Assembly: GCA_046328505.1 (NCBI GenBank)
Contig: JAXLWL010000004.1
Coordinates: 9,559-73,558, forward strand
Direction of reading: 5' to 3'
Length of the DNA stretch: 64,000 nt
DNA from: Anaerolineae bacterium
GTDB taxonomy: Bacteria > Chloroflexota > Anaerolineae > Epilineales > JAHCIE01
This document shows, one piece after another, positions 1-22,040 of this stretch. Below the pieces are notes generated by a model that was not told the origin of the DNA, searched no databases, and saw nothing but the letters and a program-made list of their open reading frames with translations. Each line of letters opens with the position of its first letter. Position 1 is the first letter of the stretch. The translations under genes and the position numbers were made by a program.

Positions 1-388
1 CCCCACGGGTTCTCGACGATCCCCCATACGTGATCCGACCAGGTGATGAGAATGAACAGAGCATCGATGATCCAGATGCCATAGTTCTTCAGGAACTTGG
101 GCGCGGGCCGCTTGAGGCCGACGTACTTCTGCACCACGTCATTGAGCGTGCCGAACGGGCAGAGAGCGCACCAGAAGCGCCCCATGAACACGAAAATGAT
201 GGGGATGAGCGGCCACCACAGGACCCAGGTCAACGCCGTACCCAGGTTGTCGTGAGCAGCCGACGGACCGGCGACGAGCTGGAACATAATCAGGACAAAC
301 ACAGCCGCCGTCACGGCCTGAAAGACCGAAGGGAATAGACGGCTCTTGAAGATACGCAGAACGAACGGCCTCTCAAGAAGATTGGTGC
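1..388 (-). CDS. NapH/MauN/FixG-type 4Fe-4S ferredoxin-like membrane protein, N-terminal part only (gene continues past window start)
   Basis: Minus-strand ATG at 386-388 preceded by AAGGGAG. Translation MSTNLLERPF...FWCALCPFGTL carries the CxxCPxG motif of NapH/NosR-type membrane ferredoxins plus hydrophobic helices. The reading frame is open to the window edge, so it is absent from the ORF track. Confidence 0.45.
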
Positions 389-1807
389 TCATCGGGCGCT
401 CCCTTTGGCCGCGGCGATAGCTTGATGAGCCGCCTTCACCTGCGATTCCTTAGCCATCGTCCTCTTGAGGAAGAACGCGACCGCAATCACCAGGGCGTTC
501 ACTGACCCAAAACCGCCGAGAACTAACGCCTTCGTTATCGGGTCTGTCCCACTTACCGCGGCGCCGTGCCCGCTCGCTTGCCCTCCCATATCGCCCTGGG
601 CCATCATCGCCGCGTGTCCGCCACCGGCAGCGGCATCAGACATCAGCCACACGCCGTAGAAGTCGTGCGTCACAGCGTGAGAGCCATCGCCCATCGTCTT
701 CGCGACCTGCTGTGCGGCGGCGACATTCTTATCACTGAGGGCTTTGGCCATCGGCTGGAGAGCCGCGCCGATCTTGTACACCGAGGGCGCGAGCGCCTTG
801 GGCCAGACGGTGTGGCCAACGAGGACCTCGATACGCCCTAGCTTCTCCTGGGCGATACCCAGGCTGCTATCGTCGCCCTTCTCCCATGCGGTAATCCGCG
901 TCCGCAGGTCGGTGACATTGCTCGTGAGGTCCAGATAAGCCGATTGCGTACAGGCCGCGTCTTTGACGCCCGCGGTGGTATCCAGCCAGGTGTAGAAGTC
1001 GTGAGTCAGGTCGTGCGAGGCATCGCTGAGGGGCTTCATGGCAGCCTGCGCAGCGGACGCATCCTTCGCCTTGAGAGCGTCACTCACCGGCATGAGCGCC
1101 ATGGCAATCGCTTGCACCGGCTTGGCAACCGCTTGATCCGAGGACATGTGCTGGACGAGGACTGCGATACGGTCGGCTTTCTCCTGAGCCACGCCCAGGC
1201 TGGCCTCATCCCCCTTTTGCCACTGATCCACACGCGTCTTCAAGTCCGCGATGTTCTGAGTGAGATCCAGGTAGTTGGCGTGCGGCGCCATTTCGGTGAA
1301 CTTCGCATCTTTCAGGCTTGGCAGCCACTCCCCGTAGAACGCGTGGGTGAGATCGTGGGAAGCATCTCCCAAGATTATCGCCGCGGCTTGACCACCCGTG
1401 ACATCTTTGTCCATGAGGGCCATATCCATCACCGCGACGCCCCCCTTGGCCTTGCTGATGGCTGCGTTCATGCTCTCCGGCCAGGCGACATGACTGAGCA
1501 TGGTTTGGATACGTTCCACCTTCTCCTGGGCCACGGCCATGCTCGCTTCATCACCCCTTTGCCATTGGTCCACGCGTGTCCGAAGGTCGGCGATATTGCC
1601 GGTCAGGTCGAGATAGGAGGCATGAACAGTCTCCATTGGAGCTGCAGCCGAGGCGCCTCCCACGGTCGTGCCGTGTGCAGCCATATGCCCTGAACTGCCG
1701 CCATCAGCTGAGACGGTGCTCCTAGAGATAAGGCCAAGCGTGAGTAAGAGCAGAATACCTGCTGTGGCAAGACAGAGTGCCTTGTGGTGCAAGTGCGGCG
1801 ATTTCAT
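389..1807 (-). CDS. secreted/membrane-anchored protein made of three ~140-aa repeats (YLDLTxN..DLRTR..W.KGD / SHDLTHDFY motifs), putative metal-binding helical repeat protein
   Basis: Track ORF 389..1885. Start refined to the ATG at 1807 (MKSPHLHH...), which has GGAGGA 7 nt upstream. N-terminal hydrophobic signal, C-terminal hydrophobic anchor, three internal repeats. Confidence 0.6.
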   Translation of the reverse strand: MKSPHLHHKALCLATAGILLLLTLGLISRSTVSADGGSSGHMAAHGTTVGGASAAAPMETVHASYLDLTGNIADLRTRVDQWQRGDEASMAVAQEKVERIQTMLSHVAWPESMNAAISKAKGGVAVMDMALMDKDVTGGQAAAIILGDASHDLTHAFYGEWLPSLKDAKFTEMAPHANYLDLTQNIADLKTRVDQWQKGDEASLGVAQEKADRIAVLVQHMSSDQAVAKPVQAIAMALMPVSDALKAKDASAAQAAMKPLSDASHDLTHDFYTWLDTTAGVKDAACTQSAYLDLTSNVTDLRTRITAWEKGDDSSLGIAQEKLGRIEVLVGHTVWPKALAPSVYKIGAALQPMAKALSDKNVAAAQQVAKTMGDGSHAVTHDFYGVWLMSDAAAGGGHAAMMAQGDMGGQASGHGAAVSGTDPITKALVLGGFGSVNALVIAVAFFLKRTMAKESQVKAAHQAIAAAKGSAR

Positions 1808-2633
1808 CTTGTTTCCTCCTTGATTGAGACCTGATAAGAATTGCCCGGCCGTCGAACCCGGCAGCCTTGCCGACGGTCGCGACAAACTCCTGGTTCAGCG
1901 TGTCGCGCACCTAAAGTTGCGCGATGCAATGCAGCCCGATGAATGCATTTCTCAGCTCGTTATTCAGTTGAGTGGCAAAGGGGAGAAGTCACCCTGAACG
2001 AGTTGTTGTTAGTATGAATGCTTCGGCTCCAGGTGATCAGAATTGGTGTATGTCTCGTATTATCCCGTGAACTACTGAGCGTGGCCTGATGCAAAACTGA
2101 GGGACTGCTGAGGATGTGATCGGCGGGGAATTAACGGCTGCTTGAGGGACGGCACAGCTTTTCCAACGACAGCCATGTTATACCAATTGGTGGTGACAGC
2201 GATGCATGGGGTCACGGCGTGCATCTGCCAACGGATAGGAACGGATAAGCTGTAATAGGCAGTACTTGATATGACGAATGGCAATGTACGACCAGCTCGT
2301 ATCTGCTGGAATAGCACGTTCTTTTTCAACGCGTTAGAGGTCATTTGGAAATTAGGGGAAAAGGCCAAGGCGGTTGAGACAGTGATGAGATATTTCTTGT
2401 GTTGCTGCCATGTCCTGAGGTAAGGGCACGCTCAACAGGATGGCAAACTCTGTCAGAAACTACGGTCCCCGTGGTGCTGCAATAGGAATAGTTCCGGGAC
2501 GCTGGTGTTCATCGAGACCCTCGGCGTGTTCCTCCAGCATCTTGCCGCCTAGCTGCAACTTCACTCATACTGTCTCTACATAGGCTCCAATACCATGAGG
2601 TCTCCGCCAGATGTTGACGCTACTGGGCACCAC

Positions 2634-3848
<1,215 letters not shown>

Positions 3849-4182
3849 TCGCCACTTGGCCGCTGCCGAGCAGCTCAGTGCGGCCAAATCGCTCGCAGGC
3901 GCAACCATGCCCGACGGAAGCAAGAATGAGTGAAGGGCGCCAAATTAACCCCAACGGAAAACCCGCGAGGTGGCTCCGGCTGGCTTCTCATGCGCTTCAA
4001 ACGCAACAGAGCCAACCATTGACGGTCGGCGGGGGCTTACAAACCGTCCTGATCGAGGCTAAGAGTTCCTACGATGCTGCGAGATATAAGAACGGTCGCT
4101 TGCCTATTCACGCGAGCATAGGACTTTGACGTACCCGATAATAGTTGTATACTTGAACTATTATAGAATGAGAGGGGCAGGG

Positions 4183-4635
4183 ATGGAACTCGTAGCGAAC
4201 CAGGATGTTACAGGCTTTGCGCTTCAAGAAGGAATGATCGCTCTGGTGCGGTCTCTTGGATTGCACCGGGGCGATATCACACCATGTGGCGAGCCTGTCT
4301 CAGTGGGAGAGGCCCATGCCCTGCTCGAATTGCGTCGAACCCAGCCCCTTTCACAGAATGATCTGGCTGAGCGTCTCGAGTTGGAGAAGAGCACGATCAG
4401 CCGATTGGTAGTTCAGATGGAGACGCGGGGATGGATCGAGCGGTACCGAGCGGCACCAGATCGGCGCGTGCAACATCTTTGTTTGACTGCGAGTGGGCAG
4501 AGCATCGCGGCCAGGCTAGCCGCGGCGAGACAGGACATGTTCCGACGAATCTTGGAAGCGATTCCCGACTGCCAGCGCGGAGCGGTTATCGAAGCCTTGA
4601 GAACTCTTGTGGAGGCAACGCGTGAAACCCGTTGA
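4183..4635 (+). CDS. MarR-family transcriptional regulator
   Basis: Winged-HTH signature LSQNDLAERLELEKSTISRLVVQMETRGWIER. Start is ambiguous (4126 or 4183). Confidence 0.8.
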   Translation: MELVANQDVTGFALQEGMIALVRSLGLHRGDITPCGEPVSVGEAHALLELRRTQPLSQNDLAERLELEKSTISRLVVQMETRGWIERYRAAPDRRVQHLCLTASGQSIAARLAAARQDMFRRILEAIPDCQRGAVIEALRTLVEATRETR

Positions 4636-4636
4636 G

Positions 4637-5155
4637 ATGAGGAACCCGAAGACAGTGGCAATTGTTGGCTTGGTCGCCCTTGTAGCGGCCGTGATCGCGG
4701 TCGTCACTTTGACACTGGTCAGTCATTATCGAGCAGCTGCTGTACAAGCGAGGCAAGCCGAGATCGAGGCTCGTGGCGCGGACGTCATGCCGTTCGACCA
4801 GAATCAGACACAGCATATCTTCACACCTACAGATGATGGGGGTCTGCAGCAAGTTGTCGCCAAAGACCCATCCAACCAGCAACAGATTGCCTTGATCCAG
4901 GCGCACCTGAGCGAAGAGGCGGACCGTTTCAAGCGCGGTGACTTCGCCGACCCAGCCAGCATTCATGGTCAGGACATGGCCGGCCTCAGCGAGTTGGAGA
5001 CTGGCGCCGCGAGCATCGACATCCAATACGCCCCATTACCGAATGGTGCCGAGATTCGCTACACCGCGAAAGACCCCCAGCTTGTCATGGCGCTCCACCA
5101 CTGGTTCATGGCGCAACTGGCGGACCATGGAGCACACGCCTCGATGCATCCCTAA
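4637..5155 (+). CDS. membrane-anchored hypothetical protein (N-terminal TM helix, His-rich C-terminus)
   Basis: Track ORF 4607..5155. A TM segment VAIVGLVALVAAVIAVVTLTLV follows a basic N-terminus. The gene overlaps the MarR stop, so co-transcription is likely. Confidence 0.5.
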   Translation: MRNPKTVAIVGLVALVAAVIAVVTLTLVSHYRAAAVQARQAEIEARGADVMPFDQNQTQHIFTPTDDGGLQQVVAKDPSNQQQIALIQAHLSEEADRFKRGDFADPASIHGQDMAGLSELETGAASIDIQYAPLPNGAEIRYTAKDPQLVMALHHWFMAQLADHGAHASMHP

Positions 5156-5193
5156 TGTGATGCTCACGGGCATGGTCTCAACGGTAGAGGTTC

Positions 5194-5487
5194 TCATTGG
5201 CTTAGCGCCGCATCATCCTCGACCTGGATGCGCCGAGGTCCGAGCCGCCGCTGTGTCCGTAGCTGGCGGATCCACTGCTCTTGGTCCGCGAAGACCTTCT
5301 GGTTAGGGAAGTGATGCGGGCGACGACGGCGGCTGTGGAGGCCTGAAACACCGTCCGCTTGGTAGCGACGCCACCACTTGCGTAAGGTCGGACGCGAGAT
5401 GCCACAGCGACGACAGACAAAGTCTGCATCCTGCGTTCGTTCGCAGAGCTGCACCCAGGCGAGACGTTGTTTGGTTTCCCGATCCAT
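5194..5487 (-). mobile_element. IS481-family transposase N-terminal (HTH) fragment, truncated remnant
   Basis: 97 aa (...CRRCGISRPTLRKWWRRYQADGVSGLHSRRRRPHHFP...) matches the HTH N-terminus of IS481-type transposases. The DDE catalytic domain is missing. Confidence 0.6.
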
Positions 5488-5727
5488 GCCAGGGTTCTCC
5501 CTACGGATTGAGTCGCTGGGTCTCGTGCTGGTCGGCCTGATGGCGAAGATAAGGATAGCAAGGGGCTCGTCCGTGTCAAGGGGACGCTGACGCGCCCCTG
5601 TGACGCGTCCTGCGCGCCTTGCTCTGCAACGGCTTGTGCCATCAGGCCAACCAGAGTTCCTACTCAGCGACTAGACTTGCTCCTCAGGTTGAAACCATGT
5701 TTGCGTACCCCGCATTATGGTATAGAT

Positions 5728-7091: not shown

Positions 7092-7835
7092 TTACTCGAT
7101 ACCGTACCAGGATTTCAGGTACCCGCGCATCTCAGCGATTTCGGCGGTCTGGGCTGCGACGATGCTCTGAGCGAGGCTCTTGATCTCCTGATGCTCTGCC
7201 TTGCCTAGCGCGACGTTCGCCATGTCGATGGCGCCCTCGTGGTGCGGGATCATCATCTGCATGAACATGCGGTCGGCGTCGAAGTTGCCGCCCATCATCT
7301 GGGCCATGTCGTCGTCATCCATCATGCCGTTACCCATCATGCCGCCCATCATCCCACCCATCATGCCCCAGCCTGAAGTGGATGTCTGCGGAGCGTTGGG
7401 GTACCATTGCTTCCGCCAGTCCTGCATTTGAGCAATCTCACGCTGTTGGGCTGTGATGATGCGCTGGGCCAGGTCATCCATCTCGGGACGGGCAGAGTTC
7501 TCGACCATGTGCTGCGTCATGAGCACGCCCATCTGGTGATGCGCAATCATCTGGTCCAGAAACTGGAGGTCATACGGCTGGCTGGACGCTGTGCTGCCCG
7601 AACCTGTACCGAGCCTACCACCCATCATGCCGCCGGTACCACGGTTGCCCATCATCCCCCCGGCGCCCCGGTTCCCCATCATGCCACCGCTGCCCCAATT
7701 GCCCATCATGCCGCCGTTGCCCCAGTTACCCATGGGGCCTTGCGCCAGGGCAACCGTCGTCAGGCCGACGACCAGGGCGAGCACTGTGAGGCCAGCAGCG
7801 AGAATACCCAGTATTCGAAGCTTCATCTCAATCAT
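7092..7835 (-). CDS. DUF305-family secreted protein with Met/Gly-rich repeats (copper-resistance associated)
   Basis: N-terminal signal/TM. Four repeats of GGMMGN[WR]G. Two DUF305 half-domains (DLQFLDQMIAHHQMGVLM and DRMFMQMMIPHHEGAIDMA, each ending ...WY). Confidence 0.8.
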   Translation of the reverse strand: MIEMKLRILGILAAGLTVLALVVGLTTVALAQGPMGNWGNGGMMGNWGSGGMMGNRGAGGMMGNRGTGGMMGGRLGTGSGSTASSQPYDLQFLDQMIAHHQMGVLMTQHMVENSARPEMDDLAQRIITAQQREIAQMQDWRKQWYPNAPQTSTSGWGMMGGMMGGMMGNGMMDDDDMAQMMGGNFDADRMFMQMMIPHHEGAIDMANVALGKAEHQEIKSLAQSIVAAQTAEIAEMRGYLKSWYGIE

Positions 7836-9859: not shown

Positions 9860-9917
9860 TCTGTCAAATAGCCGCCTCAATTCCCGGATGAACTCAGTGA
9901 AAGAAAGTAGGACGAGC

Positions 9918-10343
9918 ATGACCAAGCCCATCCCTGTCCAGGCGTTTCGGCTTGATCAACACGGCTTAATGCGGTTCTTTGGGGAACTGGAAGCGCGTGT
10001 CATGGATGTGATGTGGGATCTGGAGGAGGCCCCGATCCAGGATGTGTGCGACCGGCTTGGCGAATGCAACTATCTCACCGTCACCACGGTCATGAACCGT
10101 CTTGTGTACAAAAATGTCCTGCAACGATGGCGGGTCGGTAAGGTGTACTTCTACGCCCCTGTCCAGACGCGGGAGGAGTTTCTCCAGAGCGTGTCGCATC
10201 AGGTCGTGCAGAGCCTTGTCAAGGATTTCGGGAAGCTGGCGATAAGCCAGTTCTCCGATGTGATTGATGACCTAACCTCCGAAGACCTGGCGGCGTTGGA
10301 ACAGGCCATCCACGAAGCCCGACAGAAAGCAATCCGTCGTTAG
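9918..10343 (+). CDS. BlaI/MecI/CopY-family transcriptional repressor
   Basis: Track ORF 9789..10343. Start refined to MTKPIPVQ.... Winged-helix N-terminus (LMRFFGELEARVMDVMWDLEE...TVTTVMNRLVYKNVLQR). Confidence 0.75.
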   Translation: MTKPIPVQAFRLDQHGLMRFFGELEARVMDVMWDLEEAPIQDVCDRLGECNYLTVTTVMNRLVYKNVLQRWRVGKVYFYAPVQTREEFLQSVSHQVVQSLVKDFGKLAISQFSDVIDDLTSEDLAALEQAIHEARQKAIRR

Positions 10344-11285: not shown

Positions 11286-11854
11286 CTCCAGTAGTTAGTC
11301 GTTCTCCAACTGCCTCAGGTCCGCAAAGAATAGACTCTGGCATAAAGGTGGCCCAACTGGAGATAGACTTCTTGACGGGGATGATTCCCCACCACCGCAG
11401 TGCCATCATGATGGCGGAAATGGCCGCGATGAAGGCGACGAAGCCCGAGCTGCGTCAACTGGCGCAGAAAGAAATCAGTGAGCAGCGCGGCGAGATCGAG
11501 AAGATGACGGCCTACCTGCGCGACTGGTACGGCATAGAGGCGCCAACGGCGCAAATGATGACACCCGAGATGATGATGAAGATGGACATGCCGATGTTGC
11601 ACGGCATGATGTTCGATGACGCGGCCGCTATGGCCCGTCGTGAGGCGAAAACAGGCACGGACTTCGACATCGAGTTTATGAGCAGCATGACGCAGCACCA
11701 CAGCCAGGCGATCATGATGGCCTCAGCTGTCCTGATGAACGGTTACCACGCCGACCTCTACAAGATGGCGAACAACATCGTCATGTCACAGGGCGAGGAG
11801 ATCCAGCAGATGGATGAGTGGCTTAATGCCTGGTATGGTGTGGCAGATCCGTGA
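11243..11854 (+). CDS. DUF305-family protein, Met-rich
   Basis: Two DUF305 half-domains (DFLTGMIPHHRSAIMMAEMA and DIEFMSSMTQHHSQAIMMASAV, each ending ...WYG). Start uncertain; a GTG near 11349 is possible. No obvious signal peptide. Confidence 0.65.
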   Translation: MRPGGGRDKYLSDVAPVVSRSPTASGPQRIDSGIKVAQLEIDFLTGMIPHHRSAIMMAEMAAMKATKPELRQLAQKEISEQRGEIEKMTAYLRDWYGIEAPTAQMMTPEMMMKMDMPMLHGMMFDDAAAMARREAKTGTDFDIEFMSSMTQHHSQAIMMASAVLMNGYHADLYKMANNIVMSQGEEIQQMDEWLNAWYGVADP

Positions 11855-11939
11855 CTCAGCACATCATCAGAATTGCCTTAGTTTTGCTTCAGCCCGGTGG
11901 GTTACTATAGAGATGTTGTCTCACGTGTTGCGCTGAAGT

Positions 11940-14283: not shown

Positions 14284-16371
14284 TCACTTATGGCGAAGCA
14301 AACGGGCCGAATTGCCAAGGATGCCAAGATCGGGTAGAGATTGCGCGGCAGCCGCCAGAATAGGTGGCAGAATACCAATTGCAGCCAGCGATAGCCCCAC
14401 GAGATTGTAGCCAGCGGTGAACCCGATGTTCATCTTCACAACCCGCATTGTCCGTTTGGCAATCTTGAACAGTTCGGGCACCAGCGTCCAATCTTCGCGC
14501 ATCAGAGCAACATGCGCTGCCTCGATCGCCACATCCGTCCCGGCTGCTCCCATAGCGATTCCTACGTCAGCCTGGGCCAAGGCGGGCGCATCATTCACGC
14601 CATCTCCTACCATCACGACGACGTGTCCCTGAGCCTGATACTTCTTCACCACAGCGATCTTCTGTTCTGGCAGCAGGTTGGCGCGGTACGCTACATGGAG
14701 CGCGTCGGCAAGGGCTGCGGCCGTTCGTTCGTTGTCCCCGGTCAGGAGTTCAATGTGCTCAATCCCAAGAGCACGAACGGATGCCAGCGCCTCGGGCACT
14801 TCCGGGCGCAGGGTGTCAGCAGCCGCGAGGATGCCTGCCGGTTCGCCATTTTGGGCCACGAACAAGAGAGTCTTGCCTTGTGCCTGTAGTTCATCGGCGA
14901 TAGAGGGTACTTCAAGCATTGGAAGCATTCGGCGGCTACCGATGGTCACGAGGTTGCCGTTTACCCGTGCCTGCACTCCCATGCCAGGAACAGATTCAAA
15001 GTCCTCCGGCTCGAGCGAAGACAGTCCGCGCTCTCGCGCAGCCGCGCGTGCAGCTTCAGCGAGTGGATGCTCTGAGTAGCGCTCGGCAGATGCAGCAAGC
15101 GTCAAGAGGTCATTCTCGGAGAGGCCGTTGAGAGGGACGACGTTGGTGATCTGCGGACGGCCAAGCGTCAGTGTGCCTGTCTTGTCTACGAGAAGCACAT
15201 CAGCACGGGCAAGCAACTCCAGGTACTTCCCACCTTTGATAAGGAGCCCTCGTTTGGCTCCCGCCCCAATGGAAGCCAGCATAGCAATCGGCGTTGCGAG
15301 AGCAAAGGAGCAGGAGCAAGCCACAACCAACACCGCGGTGGTCGCGAGAGGGTCGCGGCGAACCAGAAAGGTGAGTGTCGCGATGCTTGCGACCACCGGT
15401 AGGTAGTAGGCAGAGAACTTGTCACCGATGCGTTGGATGTCGGCCTTATGCGCTTCGGCTTCCTCTACCAGCTTAATCACGCGACCAAAAGTCGTATCAG
15501 GGCCGATATGGGTCGCACGAATGCGCACACTCCCTAGCCGGGCAATCGTCGCCGCAAACACGCTTGCCCCTGGCCCGACCTCCACGGGCATCGCTTCGCC
15601 GGTGATAGTTGCCTGGTCCACTGTGGCCTGACCGCTGACGACCTCGCCATCCACCGGAATCTTGTCGCCGGGCCGGATCACAACGATCTCACCCACGCGT
15701 ACTTCGCTGGCCGGGACTTCATACTCCTCGCCGTCCCGTTCAACCCGCGCTGTCTGTGGGGCCAGTGCGGTCAGGTCTTTCACAGCACGTCGCGCGCGCT
15801 CCGTGGTGAAGTGCTCCGCGTAGTCACCCACACGCATGAAGAAGACGACGACGGCCGCTGTTGCCCATTGGCCAACGATTAAGGCAGCGACCGCGCCCAC
15901 ACTCATCAACGTGTGGGAAGTGATCTCTCTCTTCAAGGCGGAGCGGATGACGTTGCGAAAGATGGGGTAGCCAAACACGAGGACAATGCCCACACCGACA
16001 AACCAGGGGACACGTGCGGTGAGCGCTTCGAAAAGGCCTAGCCACTCGCCTACAACCACGACAAACAGCACGACGCCAAAGACGATCCCAAACAAAGTCA
16101 GGACCTGTCGGGTCAAGCCAGCCAGGGGAGCGGTAGATCGCTGCTCGTTGTCCGACTGAGGGACCGCGTATCCTGCACCCTCGACCGCCTTGCAGACGGA
16201 CGCCAAGTCCACTTGTGCTGGATCGAGCTGGATCACAGCTTTCTCTGCTGTCAGTGAGACATCTACCGCATGGACACCGGGGAGGGCCGATATGGCGCGC
16301 TGGACGCTCTTGGTGCATTCCACGCAGTCCATGCCGCGAATGGGAACCTCCAAGGTGTTGAGGCTGGCCAT
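14284..16371 (-). CDS. heavy-metal translocating P1B-type ATPase (N-terminal HMA domain; TM6 motif reads CSC instead of CPC)
   Basis: HMA domain GMDCVEC. DKTGTLT phosphorylation motif, GDGVNDAP, TGE motif. TM6 VVACSCSFALATP (15310-15318 encodes CSC). Start at MASLNT (16371), directly after the arsR stop. Confidence 0.85.
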   Translation of the reverse strand: MASLNTLEVPIRGMDCVECTKSVQRAISALPGVHAVDVSLTAEKAVIQLDPAQVDLASVCKAVEGAGYAVPQSDNEQRSTAPLAGLTRQVLTLFGIVFGVVLFVVVVGEWLGLFEALTARVPWFVGVGIVLVFGYPIFRNVIRSALKREITSHTLMSVGAVAALIVGQWATAAVVVFFMRVGDYAEHFTTERARRAVKDLTALAPQTARVERDGEEYEVPASEVRVGEIVVIRPGDKIPVDGEVVSGQATVDQATITGEAMPVEVGPGASVFAATIARLGSVRIRATHIGPDTTFGRVIKLVEEAEAHKADIQRIGDKFSAYYLPVVASIATLTFLVRRDPLATTAVLVVACSCSFALATPIAMLASIGAGAKRGLLIKGGKYLELLARADVLLVDKTGTLTLGRPQITNVVPLNGLSENDLLTLAASAERYSEHPLAEAARAAARERGLSSLEPEDFESVPGMGVQARVNGNLVTIGSRRMLPMLEVPSIADELQAQGKTLLFVAQNGEPAGILAAADTLRPEVPEALASVRALGIEHIELLTGDNERTAAALADALHVAYRANLLPEQKIAVVKKYQAQGHVVVMVGDGVNDAPALAQADVGIAMGAAGTDVAIEAAHVALMREDWTLVPELFKIAKRTMRVVKMNIGFTAGYNLVGLSLAAIGILPPILAAAAQSLPDLGILGNSARLLRHK

Positions 16372-16373
16372 GC

Positions 16374-16718
16374 TCAATCTTCCCTTTCGACGTTGTAGCG
16401 CGTGCATTGGTACACACCTTGCGCTACATCAGCCAACAGTTCTTCGGCCAGGCAGAGCAGTTGGCCGACGCGCTCGTCACTGAGACGATAGTACACATGG
16501 CGCCCCCGCTTCTCGCGCGTGACGAGGCCACAGTCATTCAAGCAAGAGAGATGATTGGAGACATTGGGCTGCGTCAGCCCAGTGACCGCAATGACTTCCG
16601 TGACACTACGCGGCCCATCTCGAAGGGCCTCAAGGACGGCGAGACGGGAGGAATCTGAAAAGCCTCGAAAGAGCTTGGCCTTCAACTGGGTCGCTTGGGC
16701 ATGTGCGGCAATTAGCAT
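16374..16718 (-). CDS. ArsR/SmtB-family metalloregulatory repressor
   Basis: HTH LAVLEALRDGPRSVTEVIAVTGLTQPNVSNHLSCLNDCGLVTREKRGRHVYYRL with candidate metal-site Cys/His. Start at MLIAAHAQ. Immediately upstream of, and co-oriented with, the ATPase. Confidence 0.8.
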   Translation of the reverse strand: MLIAAHAQATQLKAKLFRGFSDSSRLAVLEALRDGPRSVTEVIAVTGLTQPNVSNHLSCLNDCGLVTREKRGRHVYYRLSDERVGQLLCLAEELLADVAQGVYQCTRYNVERED

Positions 16719-16741
16719 AGGCTCGTCCTGGGTATATTTGT

Positions 16742-16788
16742 ATATCACTATGTGCTGATATATTATTGTGATTGCTGCGATTTGTCAA
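16742..16788 (-). promoter_or_regulatory. arsR promoter (TTGACA-17-TAATAT) with an overlapping ATATCA-N8-TGATAT palindrome, a candidate ArsR operator, in the divergent arsR/CDF intergenic region
   Basis: Minus-strand -35 at 16783-16788 and -10 at 16760-16765. The perfect 6-bp-arm inverted repeat at 16742-16761 overlaps the -10 and the predicted transcription start. Confidence 0.5.
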
Positions 16789-16851
16789 GACATGGTAAGC
16801 AAGCACCAGTTGCCAAAGACCGGACCAAGAAGCGGGGAGGAGTAGGGCGAG

Positions 16852-17754
16852 ATGGCGCATACTCACGAGCACGGGCCAGCGAATTACGGCCGAGCGTTTG
16901 CCATTGGCGTGGCTTTGAATCTCGGCTTTGTCATCATAGAGGGCGGCTACGGCTATGTGTCTAACTCGCTCGCCCTCGTCGCGGATGCCGGGCATAACCT
17001 AAGCGATGTTCTTGCCCTTCTATTGGCCTGGGGAGCGAGTGTTCTCGTTTTGCGCCTTCCGACCGTCAAGCATACGTACGGGATGCGGAGCACCTCTATT
17101 CTTGCTGCTCTTGTCAACGCAATGTTACTTCTCATTGCCATTTCGGCAATTGTGTGGGAAGCTCTCCAACGGCTGATGAACCCCGCGCCAGTCGAGGCTG
17201 AGACAGTTATCTGGGTCGCTGTCGTGGGCATTGTCGTCAACACCGTGACCGCGCTGCTGTTCATGTCCGGCCGCCAGCACGACCTTAACATCCGAGGCGC
17301 CTTCATGCACATGGCGGCTGATGCGGCCGTTTCGGCGGGCGTCGTTCTAGCCGGCTTCGCGATTATAGTAACTGGTTGGGAATGGCTTGATCCGGTGGTG
17401 AGTCTGCTCATCGCAGCAGTGATCTTCGTAGGAACCTGGGGGCTGCTCAAAGAGAGCATCAATATGGCGCTTGACGCGGTACCGGAAGGTATTGACCTTA
17501 GTGAGGTCAAGAGTTACCTCGAAGGGCTACCGGGTGTGATCGAAGTTCACGATCTCCATATCTGGCCCATGAGTACAACTGAAACTGCCTTGACAACTCA
17601 TCTTGTTATACCGGACCACAGGGCCGATGATGCGCTATTGAACGAAGTGCTAGAAACACTCCACGACAGGTTTGGCATCGAGCACACCACGATACAGATT
17701 GAAGCAGGCAATACGGCGCATCCGTGTAAACAAGCCCCGGCTCATACTGTTTGA
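16852..17754 (+). CDS. czcD: cation diffusion facilitator (CDF) family divalent metal exporter
   Basis: Six TM helices, conserved HNLSDVLALLLAW, and a C-terminal cytoplasmic domain. Divergent from arsR. Confidence 0.8.
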   Translation: MAHTHEHGPANYGRAFAIGVALNLGFVIIEGGYGYVSNSLALVADAGHNLSDVLALLLAWGASVLVLRLPTVKHTYGMRSTSILAALVNAMLLLIAISAIVWEALQRLMNPAPVEAETVIWVAVVGIVVNTVTALLFMSGRQHDLNIRGAFMHMAADAAVSAGVVLAGFAIIVTGWEWLDPVVSLLIAAVIFVGTWGLLKESINMALDAVPEGIDLSEVKSYLEGLPGVIEVHDLHIWPMSTTETALTTHLVIPDHRADDALLNEVLETLHDRFGIEHTTIQIEAGNTAHPCKQAPAHTV

Positions 17755-17882
17755 GAGACTTCGTGGAGCACAAGAAAGGAACCCGGCAGCGCAGGTACCG
17801 AGTTCCCGTAGTTCTCGTATGCCTTCTCCTCTTTCTCAGCCTCCACACCGCTTAATGTACCGAGTGCAGGTGCATTCTTACC

Positions 17883-18557
17883 TCACCCCGGATACCACTT
17901 GTTGCGCCATTCGCGCATTTGGCTGATTTCCCGTTCCTGCGCGGCGATGATGTCGGCCGCTAGCTGCCTGATCTCGGGCTTCGTCGCCCGTTGCTGAGCG
18001 ATCTTTGCCGCCTCAATAGCGCTCTCGTGATGCGGGATCATCGTATCGATGAAGGCCTTGTCGAAGGGGGACGCTGTTTGGAGCTTCTGGACGTCCTCCG
18101 CCATGTTGCCCATGTCGCTCTTCATTTCGGGTAGCATCGGCATGCTCGCCATGGCCGGCGTCTGGTCCGAACCGTACCATGCCTTACGCCAGGATTTCAT
18201 CTGCTGAACTTCCTTGTCCTGGCTACTGACGATAGCGTCGGCGAGTTGACGGATCTCGGAGTGTTCGGCGCGAGATTGAGCCACCTTAGCCATGGCGACG
18301 GCGCCCTCATGGTGCGGCACCATCATGTCGATGAACTGCTGGTCGAACGGCGCCTTTGGATCGGTTGTTGAATGCCCTGCCAACGCGTGGTTCATCCCCA
18401 TCCCTGTAGAGGATTGAGGTGGGCTTTGCATAGGCTGGCTTTGTTGCTGACCCTGTGTCTGTGGGCTACAGGCGATGACGCTGAAGCCTAGCAGGAGGCC
18501 AGCGACCAGGGCAGGAAAGTGGCGTCGAAGGTTCTGCATTACGGAGAGTCCTTTCAA
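17883..18557 (-). CDS. DUF305-family lipoprotein, Met-rich
   Basis: Lipobox VIACSPQ. DUF305 half-domains DQQFIDMMVPHHEGAVAMA and DKAFIDTMIPHHESAIEAA, each ending ...WYG. Confidence 0.8.
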   Translation of the reverse strand: MKGLSVMQNLRRHFPALVAGLLLGFSVIACSPQTQGQQQSQPMQSPPQSSTGMGMNHALAGHSTTDPKAPFDQQFIDMMVPHHEGAVAMAKVAQSRAEHSEIRQLADAIVSSQDKEVQQMKSWRKAWYGSDQTPAMASMPMLPEMKSDMGNMAEDVQKLQTASPFDKAFIDTMIPHHESAIEAAKIAQQRATKPEIRQLAADIIAAQEREISQMREWRNKWYPG

Positions 18558-18718
18558 GGGTCACGGTAGAGTTGAGGATCTGGTTTGTGCGACTTCGGTT
18601 ACTGCGCATGAACACAATCGGGCAACAAGGCGCGGGTAAGAGCCTCTTGTTTTACATCCTATAAAAGATCGCTGTCCGAATTCTAGCTTAACTCGCCGGT
18701 GTAGGCAAGAATGCGCTT

Positions 18719-21280
18719 TCAGGAAGTGCTTGTGGGAGCTCGCTCAACCGATGGAGAAGCACTCGTCGAAGGCTCGCCGCCAATAGGTTGCGCCAGATCA
18801 CTCTCGACGCGCTTGAGAGACACGGCATTGACGGCGACGATGATGGACGACAGCGACATCAGCAGCGCCGACCACTCCGGCCGCAGCATGATACCATAGG
18901 CGGGGTAAAGAATACCCGCGGCGACGGGAATCGCCAGGATATTGTAAACCGAGGCCCACACAAGGTTCTGCTTCATCTTGCGCACCGTCGCCTTCGACAG
19001 CTTGATGGCGCGGATGACGTCCACCGGATCGCTCTTCATGAGCACGACCTTCGCCGTCTCGATGGCGACGTCTGTACCCGCGCCGATGGCGATGCCGATG
19101 TCGGCCTGGGCCAACGCCGGGGCATCGTTGACACCATCGCCCACCATCGCGACGCGTTTGCCCTCCGACTGGAGCTGCTTGACGTAGCCCGCCTTGTCCG
19201 CGGGTAGCACCTCGGCGAACACCCGCTCGATGCCCAGCTCGTGTGCTACCGCCTGGGCCGTGCGCGTGTTGTCGCCGGTCATCATCACGACCTCGATGCC
19301 CAGGTCTTTCAGGCCCGCGACGGCCACCCCCGCGCTTGGCTTGACGGTATCCGCCACCGCGACGATGCCGGCCGGCTGCCCATCCACCGCCACGAGCATC
19401 GGCGTCTTGCCCGCCTCTGCCAGGCTCGCCATCCGCCCCTCCAACTCTTGCACGTCCAGACTGTTCTCGGCCATCAGCCGCGCGTTTCCGACTAGCACCG
19501 TGCGCCCGCCGACAGTGGCGCGGATGCCGCGGCCCGTGATTGCCTCGAAGCCACTGGCGTCGTCAAGCTGGAGCCCTCGTCCCTGTGCCCCCGCCACAAT
19601 CGCCTCGGCCAACGGGTGCTCCGAGCCGCGCTCGGCTGAGGCGACCAGGCGCAGTAGCCCGTTCTCGTCCAACGATCCTACCGCGACAATATTCGTTAGC
19701 GATGGCTTGCCCTCGGTCAGCGTCCCTGTCTTGTCGAGAACGATGGCGTTGATGTCGGACACCCCTTCGAGCGTGGCGGCGTCCTTGATGAGTATGTTGT
19801 GCCGCGCGCCAATGCCGGTGCCGACGGCGACGGCGGTTGGCGTCGCCAACCCCAGGGCATCGGGGCAGGCGATGACGACGGCCGAGATGGCGAAGGTAAG
19901 GGCCGTGATGAGGGCGGCGTTCAGCCCGAAGTACCACGCCAGGAAAGTAACGATGCCCGCGCCGACGGCGAGAATCACGAGGTACTGCGCCGCCCTATCG
20001 GCCAGGCGCTGGCCGGGCGCCTTGGAGTTCTGCGCCTGCTCGACCAGCTTCACGATCTGGGCCAGCGCCGTCTCCGCGCCAACGGCCGTCGCGCGGAAGC
20101 GCACGCTGCCCGTGCGGTTGATAGAGCCAGCTACCACTTTGTCGCCGGCCCGCTTGGTCACCGGCAGGCTCTCGCCTGTGACCAGGGCCTCGTCAATGGC
20201 GGTCTCGCCCTCGGTCACCTCGCCGTCCACCGGCACCTTGTCGCCAGGCCGCAGGACGACGATGTCGCCGACCTGCACCTCGCTGCTGGGAACGGTCATC
20301 TCCTGGCCGTCGCGGATGACGGTCGCCTGGGGTGGCACAAGATCGAACAAGGCGCGCAGGGCATCGTTCGTCCCCCGCCGCGAGCGCATCTCCATCCAGT
20401 GGCCGAACAGGACGAACGTCACGAGCATGGCCGCCGCTTCGTAGAACGTCTCCCCACCCAGGAAGGTGATCAGAACGCTGAAGACGTAAGCGGCCAGGAC
20501 GCCGGTGGCGATGAGGACGCTCATGTTGAGCATCCCGCGCTTGAGGGAATAGTACGCACCGGCGATGAACAGCCAGCCACAATAGAAGACCACCGGCGTG
20601 GACAGGATGAGCATGATAATGTTGGTGTCCAGGCCGAAGGTCGGCAGGCGCAAGCCGAGAAAGTTCATGCCCAGGGGGGAGTAGAGGACAGTCGGGATGG
20701 TGAGCAGGAGGGCGATGAAGAACTTGTTGCGCATGTCGCGCTCCATCGCCGCCGCCATGCCCGGATCGGACATGTCGTGCCCCATGTGCTCGTGCGCGCT
20801 GCCCTGCGCTGCGTGCTCCATGCCACCATGTGCCTCGTGAGACGTCGGCGGGGTAGTGGGCGCGACATGGTGGGCGCGGGCATGGTCGTGGGCGCGGGTC
20901 GCGGGCATCTCGTACTGCATGCGGTCATGCTTGGTGCCCATCGTGATGGGCTGGGTCTGCACACCGTGGGCGAGGTGCTGCATCTGACGCTGCGGGGAGG
21001 GCGCGACAGTCTCGTGAGGGTGGCCATCCGCCGCCGTGCAATCGCAACCGGTGGACGCGATAATCTGCTCGATCTGCTCGCGGCTAATCATCCCCTCGTG
21101 GTAGCCTACGTGAACGACGTTGTTCGCCCAGTCCAGGTGGACGCTTGTGATGTGCGGATTGACGCGAAGGGCCTTTTCGACCGCGGTGGCGCAGTCGAGG
21201 CAATACAGACCATCCAGCTTGAACGTCGCGTGCTGAGCAGTATGCACCTGGTCCTGGTGAGCTCTCTTGTGATCCATCAT
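18719..21280 (-). CDS. heavy-metal translocating P1B-type ATPase with N-terminal HMA domain and His-rich stretch (TM6 motif CPD)
   Basis: HMA domain LYCLDCATAVEKAL. His-rich HDHARAHH...HEAHGGMEHAAQGSAHEHMGHD. DKTGTLT, GDGVNDAP. TM6 VVIACPDALGLATP. Start at the ATG at 21280, which has GAGAGG upstream. Confidence 0.85.
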   Translation of the reverse strand: MMDHKRAHQDQVHTAQHATFKLDGLYCLDCATAVEKALRVNPHITSVHLDWANNVVHVGYHEGMISREQIEQIIASTGCDCTAADGHPHETVAPSPQRQMQHLAHGVQTQPITMGTKHDRMQYEMPATRAHDHARAHHVAPTTPPTSHEAHGGMEHAAQGSAHEHMGHDMSDPGMAAAMERDMRNKFFIALLLTIPTVLYSPLGMNFLGLRLPTFGLDTNIIMLILSTPVVFYCGWLFIAGAYYSLKRGMLNMSVLIATGVLAAYVFSVLITFLGGETFYEAAAMLVTFVLFGHWMEMRSRRGTNDALRALFDLVPPQATVIRDGQEMTVPSSEVQVGDIVVLRPGDKVPVDGEVTEGETAIDEALVTGESLPVTKRAGDKVVAGSINRTGSVRFRATAVGAETALAQIVKLVEQAQNSKAPGQRLADRAAQYLVILAVGAGIVTFLAWYFGLNAALITALTFAISAVVIACPDALGLATPTAVAVGTGIGARHNILIKDAATLEGVSDINAIVLDKTGTLTEGKPSLTNIVAVGSLDENGLLRLVASAERGSEHPLAEAIVAGAQGRGLQLDDASGFEAITGRGIRATVGGRTVLVGNARLMAENSLDVQELEGRMASLAEAGKTPMLVAVDGQPAGIVAVADTVKPSAGVAVAGLKDLGIEVVMMTGDNTRTAQAVAHELGIERVFAEVLPADKAGYVKQLQSEGKRVAMVGDGVNDAPALAQADIGIAIGAGTDVAIETAKVVLMKSDPVDVIRAIKLSKATVRKMKQNLVWASVYNILAIPVAAGILYPAYGIMLRPEWSALLMSLSSIIVAVNAVSLKRVESDLAQPIGGEPSTSASPSVERAPTSTS

Positions 21281-22040
21281 GACGCCTCTCGTTGCATCAA
21301 ACACACAATACATTCACCTTTCCAAAGTATACGCGATTTGCTTTATGCACGGTAAAAGTTACTGCCGCGCATCGTGATCAACAGCCGTAAATACGTCGGA
21401 TGGCTAGGTTCCGCTTGAGGGCGAACGCATGTTGCCTGACGCATTGCTTTGAACATAGGTGACGATGCAGCAAATCAACAAGCAGGACGATCGGATGGAG
21501 TGACATGCGAGTCCAGTAGAGGTGCGAATCAATACGCTACGTGGAGGGAGCGCCATGTCCGATAGCCTCGCCCTCTCTGCTACTGTCCTTGATCGTGTTC
21601 ATACAATCAACTCTCCCGAAGACCTACACCGCCAGAAGGTTTTCACCTCAATCGTCGTCGGCATACTGTTGGAGCAGACCATCAGCATGCCTCAAGATAG
21701 TAGAGCGGTGAACCGGCGGTCTGCAGGCTCAGACGTTAGCTGATCTCGATGACTGTAACCGTGCTCTTCCCCTCACCACGAAATCCGCCACACTTCAACG
21801 AAATTCCCGTCGACGCGTTACCATTTGCCCCCCTTGTGCGTCTACTTATTGTAACTATATACTGTTTTCGCTACTCCGATCATCCTGCCGACGTTTCGTC
21901 GCGCGCCTCGTCCTCCGGCGATCAGCGCATTCTTACCCTCATCATCGCCTCGCTGATTTGCGCCCTGCTGTTCTCGGCTGACACGCCCAGGCTCTTCCGC
22001 CGTCTCGACCCCCGTCGGGACTGCCCTCCAGGAGGTCACC

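Follow-up and report, generated by a model that had tools for sequence, protein, structure and literature searches.

The DNA analysed here, hereafter the window, is a 64,000-nucleotide stretch of an Anaerolineae bacterium genome (GCA_046328505.1, contig JAXLWL010000004.1, positions 9,559–73,558 of the forward strand). At one end of it lies a gene for an exported protein composed of three tandem repeats, and directly downstream begins a gene for a Fer4_5-type membrane polyferredoxin; these two genes form the cassette that is the subject of this analysis (Table 1). The likely start of the triple-repeat protein is the ATG at position 1807, and a 93%-identical homologue (P0001) begins at the matching methionine; an alternative TTG at 1885 would extend the protein by 26 residues. 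An exact-sequence look-up of the window protein returned no record. The hydropathy profile shows one hydrophobic segment near each end of the protein, in agreement with the signal peptide and C-terminal membrane anchor put forward in the original prediction made from this DNA. No twin-arginine motif was seen in the signal peptides across the family, which are of the Sec or lipoprotein type throughout; because of this, any cofactor would have to join the protein after export, in keeping with a simple ion. Many homologues carry a lipobox (for example, LATAC or LAAGC) at the position of the signal peptide, and a GGFG motif is conserved among them at the C-terminal anchor. The signal and repeat 1 are separated by a short Gly/His-rich stretch. 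The linker that follows repeat 3 is richer in His (7.7% vs 3.3%) and Met (4.1% vs 2.4%) than the repeats across homologues, and contains H414 in an S/G-H-G motif that is nearly invariant (at least 90% conserved). The positive-inside rule is well established and bears on the placing of the basic C-terminal tail in the cytoplasm. A 249-residue open reading frame (944–1693, + strand) lies wholly inside the repeat gene and was rejected as a shadow frame without support; the nested open reading frames at 465–659, 566–841 and 744–938 are likewise unsupported shadow frames of this G+C-rich gene.

The YLDLT motif recurs in the triple-repeat protein with spacings of 114 and 112 residues. The repeats are 112–114 residues long, shorter than the ~140 residues originally proposed, and their pairwise identities of 54%, 43% and 51% (BLASTP, E = 1e-29 to 1e-35) extend below the proposed range of 50–60%. 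With E values of this order, the tandem repetition described in the original prediction is real and far beyond chance. The two conserved blocks that it had described in each repeat were also recovered, with [H/Q]-x-x-Y-L-D-L-T-x-N...W at the start and S-H-[D/A]-[L/V]-T-H-[D/A]-F-Y at the end. In a full-length AlphaFold2 model based on 23 homologues, the repeats adopt three up-down four-helix bundles, with predicted local distance difference test (pLDDT) scores mostly of 83–98 per 10-residue block; the signal and linker are disordered and the C-terminus forms one long helix. Repeat 1 modelled alone from 34 aligned repeats reached a pLDDT of 96.6, with helices spanning residues 2–26, 31–49, 54–75 and 79–107.

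This bundle domain, an extracytoplasmic helical repeat, falls into no family catalogued in Pfam-A, NCBIfam or the PDB, consistent with the original failure to place it in a known family. Scans of the whole protein against Pfam-A and NCBIfam returned sub-threshold noise only (HalX, TACC_C, SiaB and the like), no family recurred and none passed its cut-off when 34 repeats were scanned singly against Pfam, and a sequence search of the PDB with the triple-repeat protein gave no match. A Foldseek search of the PDB with the three-bundle model identified nothing below E 0.001, the only hits being catenin, talin and BRIL-type bundles. Designed alphaRep/HEAT-like repeats, which emerged when the repeat profile was compared with the PDB, were rejected as a compositional likeness, limited to a short A-x-EP-x-x-KAL-KD resemblance in helix 3. 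We found no published description of the bundle family in the literature on Fer4_5 and cupredoxins, on NapH-like proteins and four-helix bundles, or on Chloroflexi and copper. We propose a domain of ~113 residues, defined as an exported up-down bundle with W-P after helix 2 and H-D-x-x-H-x-x-Y-x-[WF]-L on helix 4. Against the profile of this HDxxH bundle domain, the three window repeats align over their full length at 156–158 bits, and they contain its motifs with two exceptions, as repeat 2 lacks W-P and repeat 3 reads HAVTH. A precomputed Pfam tag, PF28004.1, is attached to the 63%-identical homologue P0003; a scan of P0003 against the local Pfam gave no such family.

Using numbering within the repeat, the conserved positions are H5, Y8, L9, D10, N14, D17 and W25 on helix 1; E38 and R42 on helix 2, with H49 at the end of this helix in repeats 2 and 3 and W52-P53 in the turn; and D91, H94, D95, T97, H98, F100, Y101 and W104 on helix 4. 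The latter helix follows a heptad pattern (A84, I87/88, D91, H94, H98, Y101, L105) in which D91, H94, H98 and Y101 occupy core a/d positions. According to the helix limits of the repeat-1 model, helix-4 residues 94–101 are level with helix-1 residues 5–10 and helix-2 residue 49, and by this register the conserved polar residues come together in a single layer at one bundle end. We suggest that each bundle would hold one metal ion, probably Cu(II), at the end where helix 1 starts and helix 4 finishes. The likely ligands would be the i/i+4 pair of the HDxxH motif, H94 and H98, with D91, Y101, H5/Y8/D10 and often H49 as nearby candidates. This His/Asp/Tyr cluster is suited to Cu(II), and the ligand count fits one ion per bundle with no sign of a di-metal site.

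Variation within the family bears on the nature of this site. Position 5 is a His family-wide in repeats 1 and 2, the second of which usually lacks the W-P turn. In repeat 3 the same position is a Gln in 31 of 37 three-repeat proteins and is preceded by a conserved Cys; the corresponding Q288 of the window protein, which replaces the helix-1 His, is invariant in 23 close homologues (alignment A1). Of 136 full-length repeats, 105 have both H94 and H98, 20 have neither and 11 have just one of them; the HDxxH of repeat 2 is the most often lost in homologues. One subclade keeps H98 and has Asp, itself a metal ligand, in place of H94 (motif FDxxxHPYYGKW). A distant subfamily, which matches the profile from helix 2 onward only, retains W-P and Q-H-D-L-S-H-x-x-Y-x-W-L, and features a third His four residues earlier (H90/H94/H98) together with D-x-x-G-F-H on helix 1. 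The joint loss of H94 and H98, the replacement of H94 by Asp and the H90/H94/H98 ladder speak for a chelating site rather than for a structural role or for His as a lone haem ligand.

The four-helix fold and the electron-transfer company of the family, described below, would also fit a haem-b carrier resembling cytochrome b562, in which each bundle would hold one b-type haem between an axial ligand close to the beginning of helix 1 and a His towards the end of helix 4. Electrons from Fer4_5, NrfD or cytochrome b modules would pass through such a protein on their way to cupredoxins or oxidases. Like the repeat, cytochrome b562 (PF07361) is an extracytoplasmic up-down four-helix bundle of ~106–110 residues with a His near the end of helix 4. 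However, the bundle domain has no conserved helix-1 Met ligand, its cluster and pocket are polar and its His pair is chelate-like. The hhalign comparison of the repeat profile (A2) with E. coli cytochrome b562 gave a probability of 0.4%, and PF07361 matched neither the window protein nor any of the 34 repeats. Given in addition the paired loss of H94 and H98, the Asp replacement at H94 and the Gln at position 5 of repeat 3, we consider haem binding and the relay role that goes with it improbable. Two relatives have borderline summed scores for PF07361. P0033 reaches 30.4 bits, where the cut-off is 30, none of its stretches being significant by itself; P0052 stays at 24.4 bits.

The original prediction had placed the protein next to a NapH-like ferredoxin. 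A Fer4_5 gene does begin at position 392, and its ATG (392–390) overlaps the stop codon of the repeat gene by 4 bp (ATGA), but it is more than a neighbour, being an obligate partner with translational overlap. The 447-residue partner lies directly downstream of the repeat gene in eight loci (the window, L001, L003, L008, L009, L012, L013 and L014), with the 4-bp overlap wherever gene calls or sequence were read (the window, L001, L003, L008 and L009). A profile of four full-length partner orthologues matched the window fragment (3–449, − strand) with an E value of 1.6e-81, and the full-length orthologue at L001:11464–12807 scored 43.2 bits against the Pfam Fer4_5 cut-off of 22. In the same comparisons between orthologues, the partner is 69–73% identical and the repeat protein about 44–51%. 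The bundle/Fer4_5 pairing does not depend on a metal-island setting, because the L008 cassette sits among sugar-metabolism genes. We conclude that the triple-repeat protein is very probably a functional partner of the Fer4_5 protein.

The partner contains GRFWCA[IL]CPFG (CxxCP) and WCRYLC (CxxxC) motifs and two Cys clusters typical of [4Fe-4S] sites. A further ~200 residues at its C-terminus (L009 3197–4540 and orthologues) contain several transmembrane helices, among which the stretch P-L-D-I-A-G-H-I-A-H-N-L-Y-H-L-L is conserved. Its GHIAHNLYH core may be a metal- or haem-binding site by which electrons or copper cross the membrane. This stretch is absent from a second, paralogous Fer4_5 gene (28% identical) on L001, which lies in the region 16541–19780 in the order PCYCGC, cupredoxin/COX2-like, Fer4_5 and COX2-cytochrome c fusion. 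From this gene order, Fer4_5 proteins of the L001 lineage pair with either cupredoxins or the four-helix-bundle protein.

CcoG/FixG, YccM and NapH/MauN share with the partner a Cys-motif membrane domain at the N-terminus and, after it, two [4Fe-4S]-type Cys clusters. NapH and NosR-type relatives serve extracytoplasmic redox partners. The partner differs from CcoG in having no FixG_C Ig-like domain, with the extra C-terminal transmembrane helices instead, and none of CcoG/FixG, YccM and NapH/MauN is known to have a dedicated partner composed of three four-helix bundles. In kind, the bundle protein is another exported helical protein with a predicted His metal site, set beside a known class of membrane polyferredoxin. 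One member of this class, CcoG, acts as a specific Cu(II) reductase, with a gain in copper tolerance (PMC7558416).

Domain fusions link the family to copper. Extra sequence of at least 95 residues outside the bundles is present in 60 members, and Pfam scans of this sequence identified Cupredoxin_1 in 20, Copper-bind (plastocyanin-type) in seven, PCuAC in five (100–119 bits), cytochrome c in four and YtkA in three; one fused member matched Cu-oxidase_2. The remaining matches were singletons (cell-surface Ig/cadherin-type, ZnuA-like and ABC permease) or sub-threshold noise. The recurring fusion partners above Pfam cut-offs are thus copper-binding domains or cytochrome c. Among these, PCuAC serves as a chaperone for Cu(I). 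YtkA domains, as in CtaK and the C-terminus of YcnJ, take part in CuA assembly and copper trafficking (PMC13344008).

Gene neighbourhoods were examined at 12 loci of a family with 148 cluster representatives, and where the Fer4_5 neighbour is missing they tie the bundle to other membrane electron-transfer modules, based on quinol, Fe-S or haem. At L011 a Tat-signal NrfC-like ferredoxin, NrfD and an Ig-like protein precede a three-bundle protein, and at L019 NrfD and a cytochrome c do so. At L017 the order is multicopper oxidase, cytochrome b, Ig-like anchor and three-bundle protein, with a cupredoxin and a DsbD-like protein (below the Pfam cut-off) downstream. L022 contains a single bundle, cytochrome b, an HMA protein, a multicopper oxidase-like protein, SHOCT and DUF302, with YHS proteins upstream. 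At L023 a bundle-cupredoxin fusion accompanies Fer4_11 and NrfD, at L006 a YtkA-bundle fusion lies beside an 842-residue MtrC-like multihaem cytochrome, and at L021 five bundles and a cupredoxin follow a histidine kinase and a response regulator. The cassettes with the Fer4_5 partner are accompanied at L003 by CopZ, three HMA ATPases and a sulfocyanin-like cupredoxin; at L001 by cupredoxins, PCYCGC, DsbD/thioredoxin and the second Fer4_5 paralogue, flanked by COX2-like cupredoxins; and at L009 by SHOCT and rhodanese.

The original view of a periplasmic metal-binding helical bundle is partly supported, by the bundle fold, by the clustered His/Asp/Tyr residues and by these copper fusions and neighbourhoods, whereas there was no sign of the di-metal site for which it had proposed to look. 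Its further suggestion was that the tandem organisation provides binding capacity for several ions. Capacity alone appears too narrow a role, because the family is tied to membrane electron-transfer modules, and a function in copper redox or trafficking is the likelier one.

The conserved cluster and the His/Met-enriched linker could also belong to a passive metal buffer or sponge, comparable to CopM/DUF305 or CnrX-type binders, that would hold Cu, Zn or Ni at the cell surface with no exchange of electrons, the Fer4_5 neighbour having a purpose of its own. Tandem repetition would multiply its capacity, one bundle is fused to a ZnuA-like domain, and the window cassette is located at a multi-metal resistance island with DUF305, CDF, Zn/Cd ATPase and Cu ATPase genes. 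However, three sites per protein amount to a small capacity. Such a sponge would not account for a Fer4_5 gene that is adjacent in eight loci, overlaps by 4 bp where read and in one locus lies outside metal islands, and the recurrent NrfD, cytochrome b, cytochrome c and multihaem partners are hard to explain without electron transfer. We therefore regard a passive sponge as unlikely, though less so than a haem carrier.

The reading that we favour is that each bundle binds one copper ion and that the protein is the outer-face partner of Fer4_5 in a copper redox or hand-off module. It draws on the fusions to copper-binding domains and cytochrome c, on the electron-transfer neighbours and on a His/Asp/Tyr cluster suited to Cu(II), and we judge its chances of being correct to be about even. 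The protein would be exported by the Sec route and anchored through its C-terminal helix to the outside of the cytoplasmic membrane, as the extracytoplasmic partner of the downstream Fer4_5 protein with its two predicted [4Fe-4S] sites. There Cu(II) would be caught on the bundles and reduced with electrons from the membrane partner, and the resulting Cu(I) would be handed on to proteins specific for Cu(I). These might be PCuAC- or YtkA-type chaperones, cupredoxins and, in the window, the DUF305 protein with Met-rich repeats (Table 1). As a rule, electrons leave low-potential Fe-S clusters, NrfCD modules and cytochrome b in the outward direction. Since this is the usual direction and CcoG reduces Cu(II), reduction of Cu(II) followed by transfer of Cu(I) is the most economical mechanism. 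That the Fer4_5/bundle pair is a cupric reductase specifically is a narrower proposal, based on analogy with CcoG, and we hold it only tentatively and consider it rather doubtful. Slightly more doubtful still is the general form of the proposal, in which the bundle would be a hitherto unrecognised extracytoplasmic copper redox domain that, tethered to the quinol- or Fe-S-linked modules Fer4_5, NrfCD or cytochrome b, makes up an oxygen-independent cell-surface cupric reductase or cuprous oxidase. The opposite direction, in which Cu(I) would be oxidised with the membrane as electron sink, is an alternative.

Several observations weigh against the copper redox and hand-off reading. The binding of metal, its identity, the redox role and its direction are all deduced. 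The geometry of the site is read from helix register and not from measured coordinates, and the joint loss of H94 and H98 has a nominal Fisher p value of 4e-15 that is uncorrected for shared ancestry. A His/Asp/Tyr ligand set would also suit Zn, Ni or Fe. The fusion to a ZnuA-like domain departs from the copper pattern, and the L008 cassette stands outside any metal context. Because the window island is multi-metal, it does not by itself identify copper as the ion of the repeat protein. The partner scored far below the NapH cut-offs (28.4 vs 213 bits for TIGR02163 and 26.5 vs 234 bits for PRK09477), and no CcoG/FixG family was found among its NCBIfam or Pfam matches; for these reasons, the chemistry assigned to it is an analogy. 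CcoG is, moreover, thought to reduce copper on the cytoplasmic side, and the GHIAHNLYH helix is only a candidate route for electrons to the outer face. The direction of electron flow is a thermodynamic argument and not an observation. Finally, all sequences of the family are metagenomic.

Other extracytoplasmic helical proteins share features with the bundle family. EfeO/EfeM are, as is predicted here for the bundle domain, extracytoplasmic helical metal modules found either singly or in fusion with a cupredoxin-like domain, and both families are linked to metal redox chemistry at the membrane. The partners differ, being Fer4_5, NrfD and cytochrome b for the bundle but an FTR1-type permease and DyP peroxidase for EfeO/EfeM, as do the signatures (HDxxH vs HxxE). 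Peptidase_M75 (imelysin-like) gave no Pfam match at E <= 10, and there is no conserved HxxE in the repeat consensus. CopM/DUF305 proteins (PF03713) are likewise helical, His-bearing, exported and encoded in copper-resistance loci; their motif is different, however, and DUF305 is not known to have a conserved Fe-S partner. The original prediction had kept the repeat apart from DUF305, and rightly so, as there was no Pfam match to this family and hhalign against the window's own DUF305 protein gave a probability of 0.2%. CnrX and NccX are membrane-anchored four-helix periplasmic metal sensors with an HxxxH metal site. The bundle protein resembles these sensors in being helical, membrane-tethered and extracytoplasmic, with His-x3-His on one helix and ligands elsewhere. 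It differs in having no Pfam match to their family and no anti-sigma partner, in its three tandem domains and in its Fe-S operon partner.

The bundles might also bind a protein or small ligand instead of a metal, as do chemoreceptor or kinase four-helix sensors or PsbQ. The triple-repeat protein would then be a scaffold, chaperone or sensor-like subunit that regulates or stabilises the Fer4_5 complex or helps to mature copper proteins. It has, however, no cytoplasmic signalling domain, merely a 24-residue tail; its most conserved positions are classic metal ligands at predicted core positions; and the family is fused to copper-binding domains, not to signalling modules. We regard a non-metal role as very improbable, the least probable of the alternatives considered.

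The close family is known only from Chloroflexota, mostly from uncultured genomes, and this rarity limits its reach. A word-indexed search of 5.8 billion proteins returned 29 relatives, every named source of which is a Chloroflexota metagenome-assembled genome. Among 1.84 billion cluster representatives, the repeat profile identified 148 proteins at E <= 0.001, including 66 at E <= 1e-10. A scan of one genome per species (185,579 species) found nine loci, all in Chloroflexota (Anaerolineales, Ktedonobacterales and unclassified). The three-repeat architecture is by far the commonest (76 of 173 proteins), also in the distant subfamily.

How bacteria convert copper between its oxidation states outside the cytoplasm is not settled, and recent work on Bacillus is still in search of the membrane activity that reduces Cu(II), both for the assembly of oxidases and for detoxification (PMC13344008). 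With its copper fusions and electron-transfer wiring, the bundle family is a concrete and testable candidate for this missing step. If the proposal of an extracytoplasmic copper redox domain is correct, PCuAC/YtkA chaperones and cupredoxins would receive their Cu(I) from the bundle module, or the module would govern copper speciation under stress, and it would constitute an outer-face Cu(II)/Cu(I) conversion step not previously identified in bacterial copper trafficking. It would, in addition, bring a new kind of metal site to four-helix bundles. The protein is a good experimental target, as its soluble part is small and confidently modelled and the prediction of ~3 Cu per chain is easy to falsify.

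Table 1. Features of the cassette and of its surroundings in the window.
Feature	Position	Strand	Basis
Fer4_5/NapH-CcoG-like polyferredoxin membrane protein, first 130 codons, cut by window edge	1-392	-	sequence, GRFWCALCPFG
Triple-repeat protein, coding sequence, 472 residues	389-1807	-	open reading frame list and sequence; stop TGA 391-389
Short basic cytoplasmic tail, residues 449-472 (24 residues)	392-463	-	sequence
C-terminal transmembrane anchor, residues 424-448	464-538	-	hydropathy peak, AlphaFold helix 423-468
Disordered Gly/His/Met-rich linker, residues 397-423	539-619	-	pLDDT <50
Repeat 3, residues 285-396, C286, Q288, H332, H377-A-V-T-H381	620-955	-	motif reading, AlphaFold
Repeat 2, residues 172-284, H176-x2-Y179-L-D181, H220, H265-D-L-T-H269	956-1294	-	motif reading, AlphaFold
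Repeat 1, residues 58-171, H62-x2-Y65-L-D67 and H151-D-L-T-H155	1295-1636	-	motif reading, AlphaFold
Sec-type signal peptide, residues 1-34: basic n-region, hydrophobic core, VSA then D35	1706-1807	-	hydropathy peak, residues 6-34
Shine-Dalgarno-like AGGAGG, 7 nucleotides before ATG	1815-1820	-	direct sequence reading
Leader/promoter region, ~310 bp, near-identical to L009, similarity ending abruptly near 2120	1808-2120	-	pairwise alignment
Perfect inverted repeat TCGCGCA-N8-TGCGCGA	1903-1924
Gene-free region upstream of repeat gene, ~825 bp	1808-2633	-
Aldo/keto reductase	2634-3569	-
MarR regulator	4126-4635	+
Membrane-anchored protein, 182 residues, no Pfam or NCBIfam match	4607-5155	+
Transposase-like helix-turn-helix fragment	5194-5487	-
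DUF305 gene with Met-rich repeats	7092-7835 (by tblastn about 7095-7835)	-	tblastn
DUF305 gene	about 11360-11869		tblastn
Zn/Cd-type P1B ATPase with HMA domain	14287-16428	-
ZitB-like CDF transporter	16846-17751	+
DUF305 gene	about 17856-18350		tblastn
CopA-type copper ATPase	18722-21313	-

The window island comprises rhodanese, SHOCT, DUF305, a CopA-type ATPase, a Zn/Cd-type ATPase and a CDF transporter. Four DUF305 proteins had originally been counted in it, and tblastn found three genes. The protein encoded by the first of these contains long N-terminal G-G-M-M-G-N-[WR]-G repeats and further GMMGG runs; this low-complexity region looks like a Met-rich, Cu(I)-type sequence.

Upstream of the repeat gene, the similarity to L009 stops abruptly (Table 1), which indicates that the cassette travels with its own leader. 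The perfect inverted repeat in this leader lies ~100 nucleotides before the ATG. An Rfam scan of window positions 1–4200 gave no match in the long upstream region, and promoter and terminator scans remained at chance level, with no convincing sigma-70 consensus. A different inverted repeat, A[AT]TGGCG-N12-CGCCA[AT]T, is located ~75–90 nucleotides upstream of the repeat gene at L001 (~9890–9925) and L003 (~9885–9925) and is missing from the window leader; a GerE-type response regulator is encoded nearby in L003. This operator-like element may be a regulator-binding site.

In the window, the genes within 2634–5650 part the cassette from the rhodanese, SHOCT and DUF305 genes, whereas in L009 rhodanese and SHOCT are directly upstream of the cassette. 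Compared with the L009 order, this suggests an insertion or rearrangement between the window cassette and the rhodanese-SHOCT-DUF305 genes. The Ktedonobacterales locus L008 has an aldo/keto reductase ahead of its cassette as well. The G+C content of the window is 0.57–0.62 over the first 22 kb, 0.72 at 22–24 kb and 0.64–0.68 up to 34 kb, and falls to 0.52–0.53 in a patch at 50–54 kb, so that the composition of the window is mosaic.

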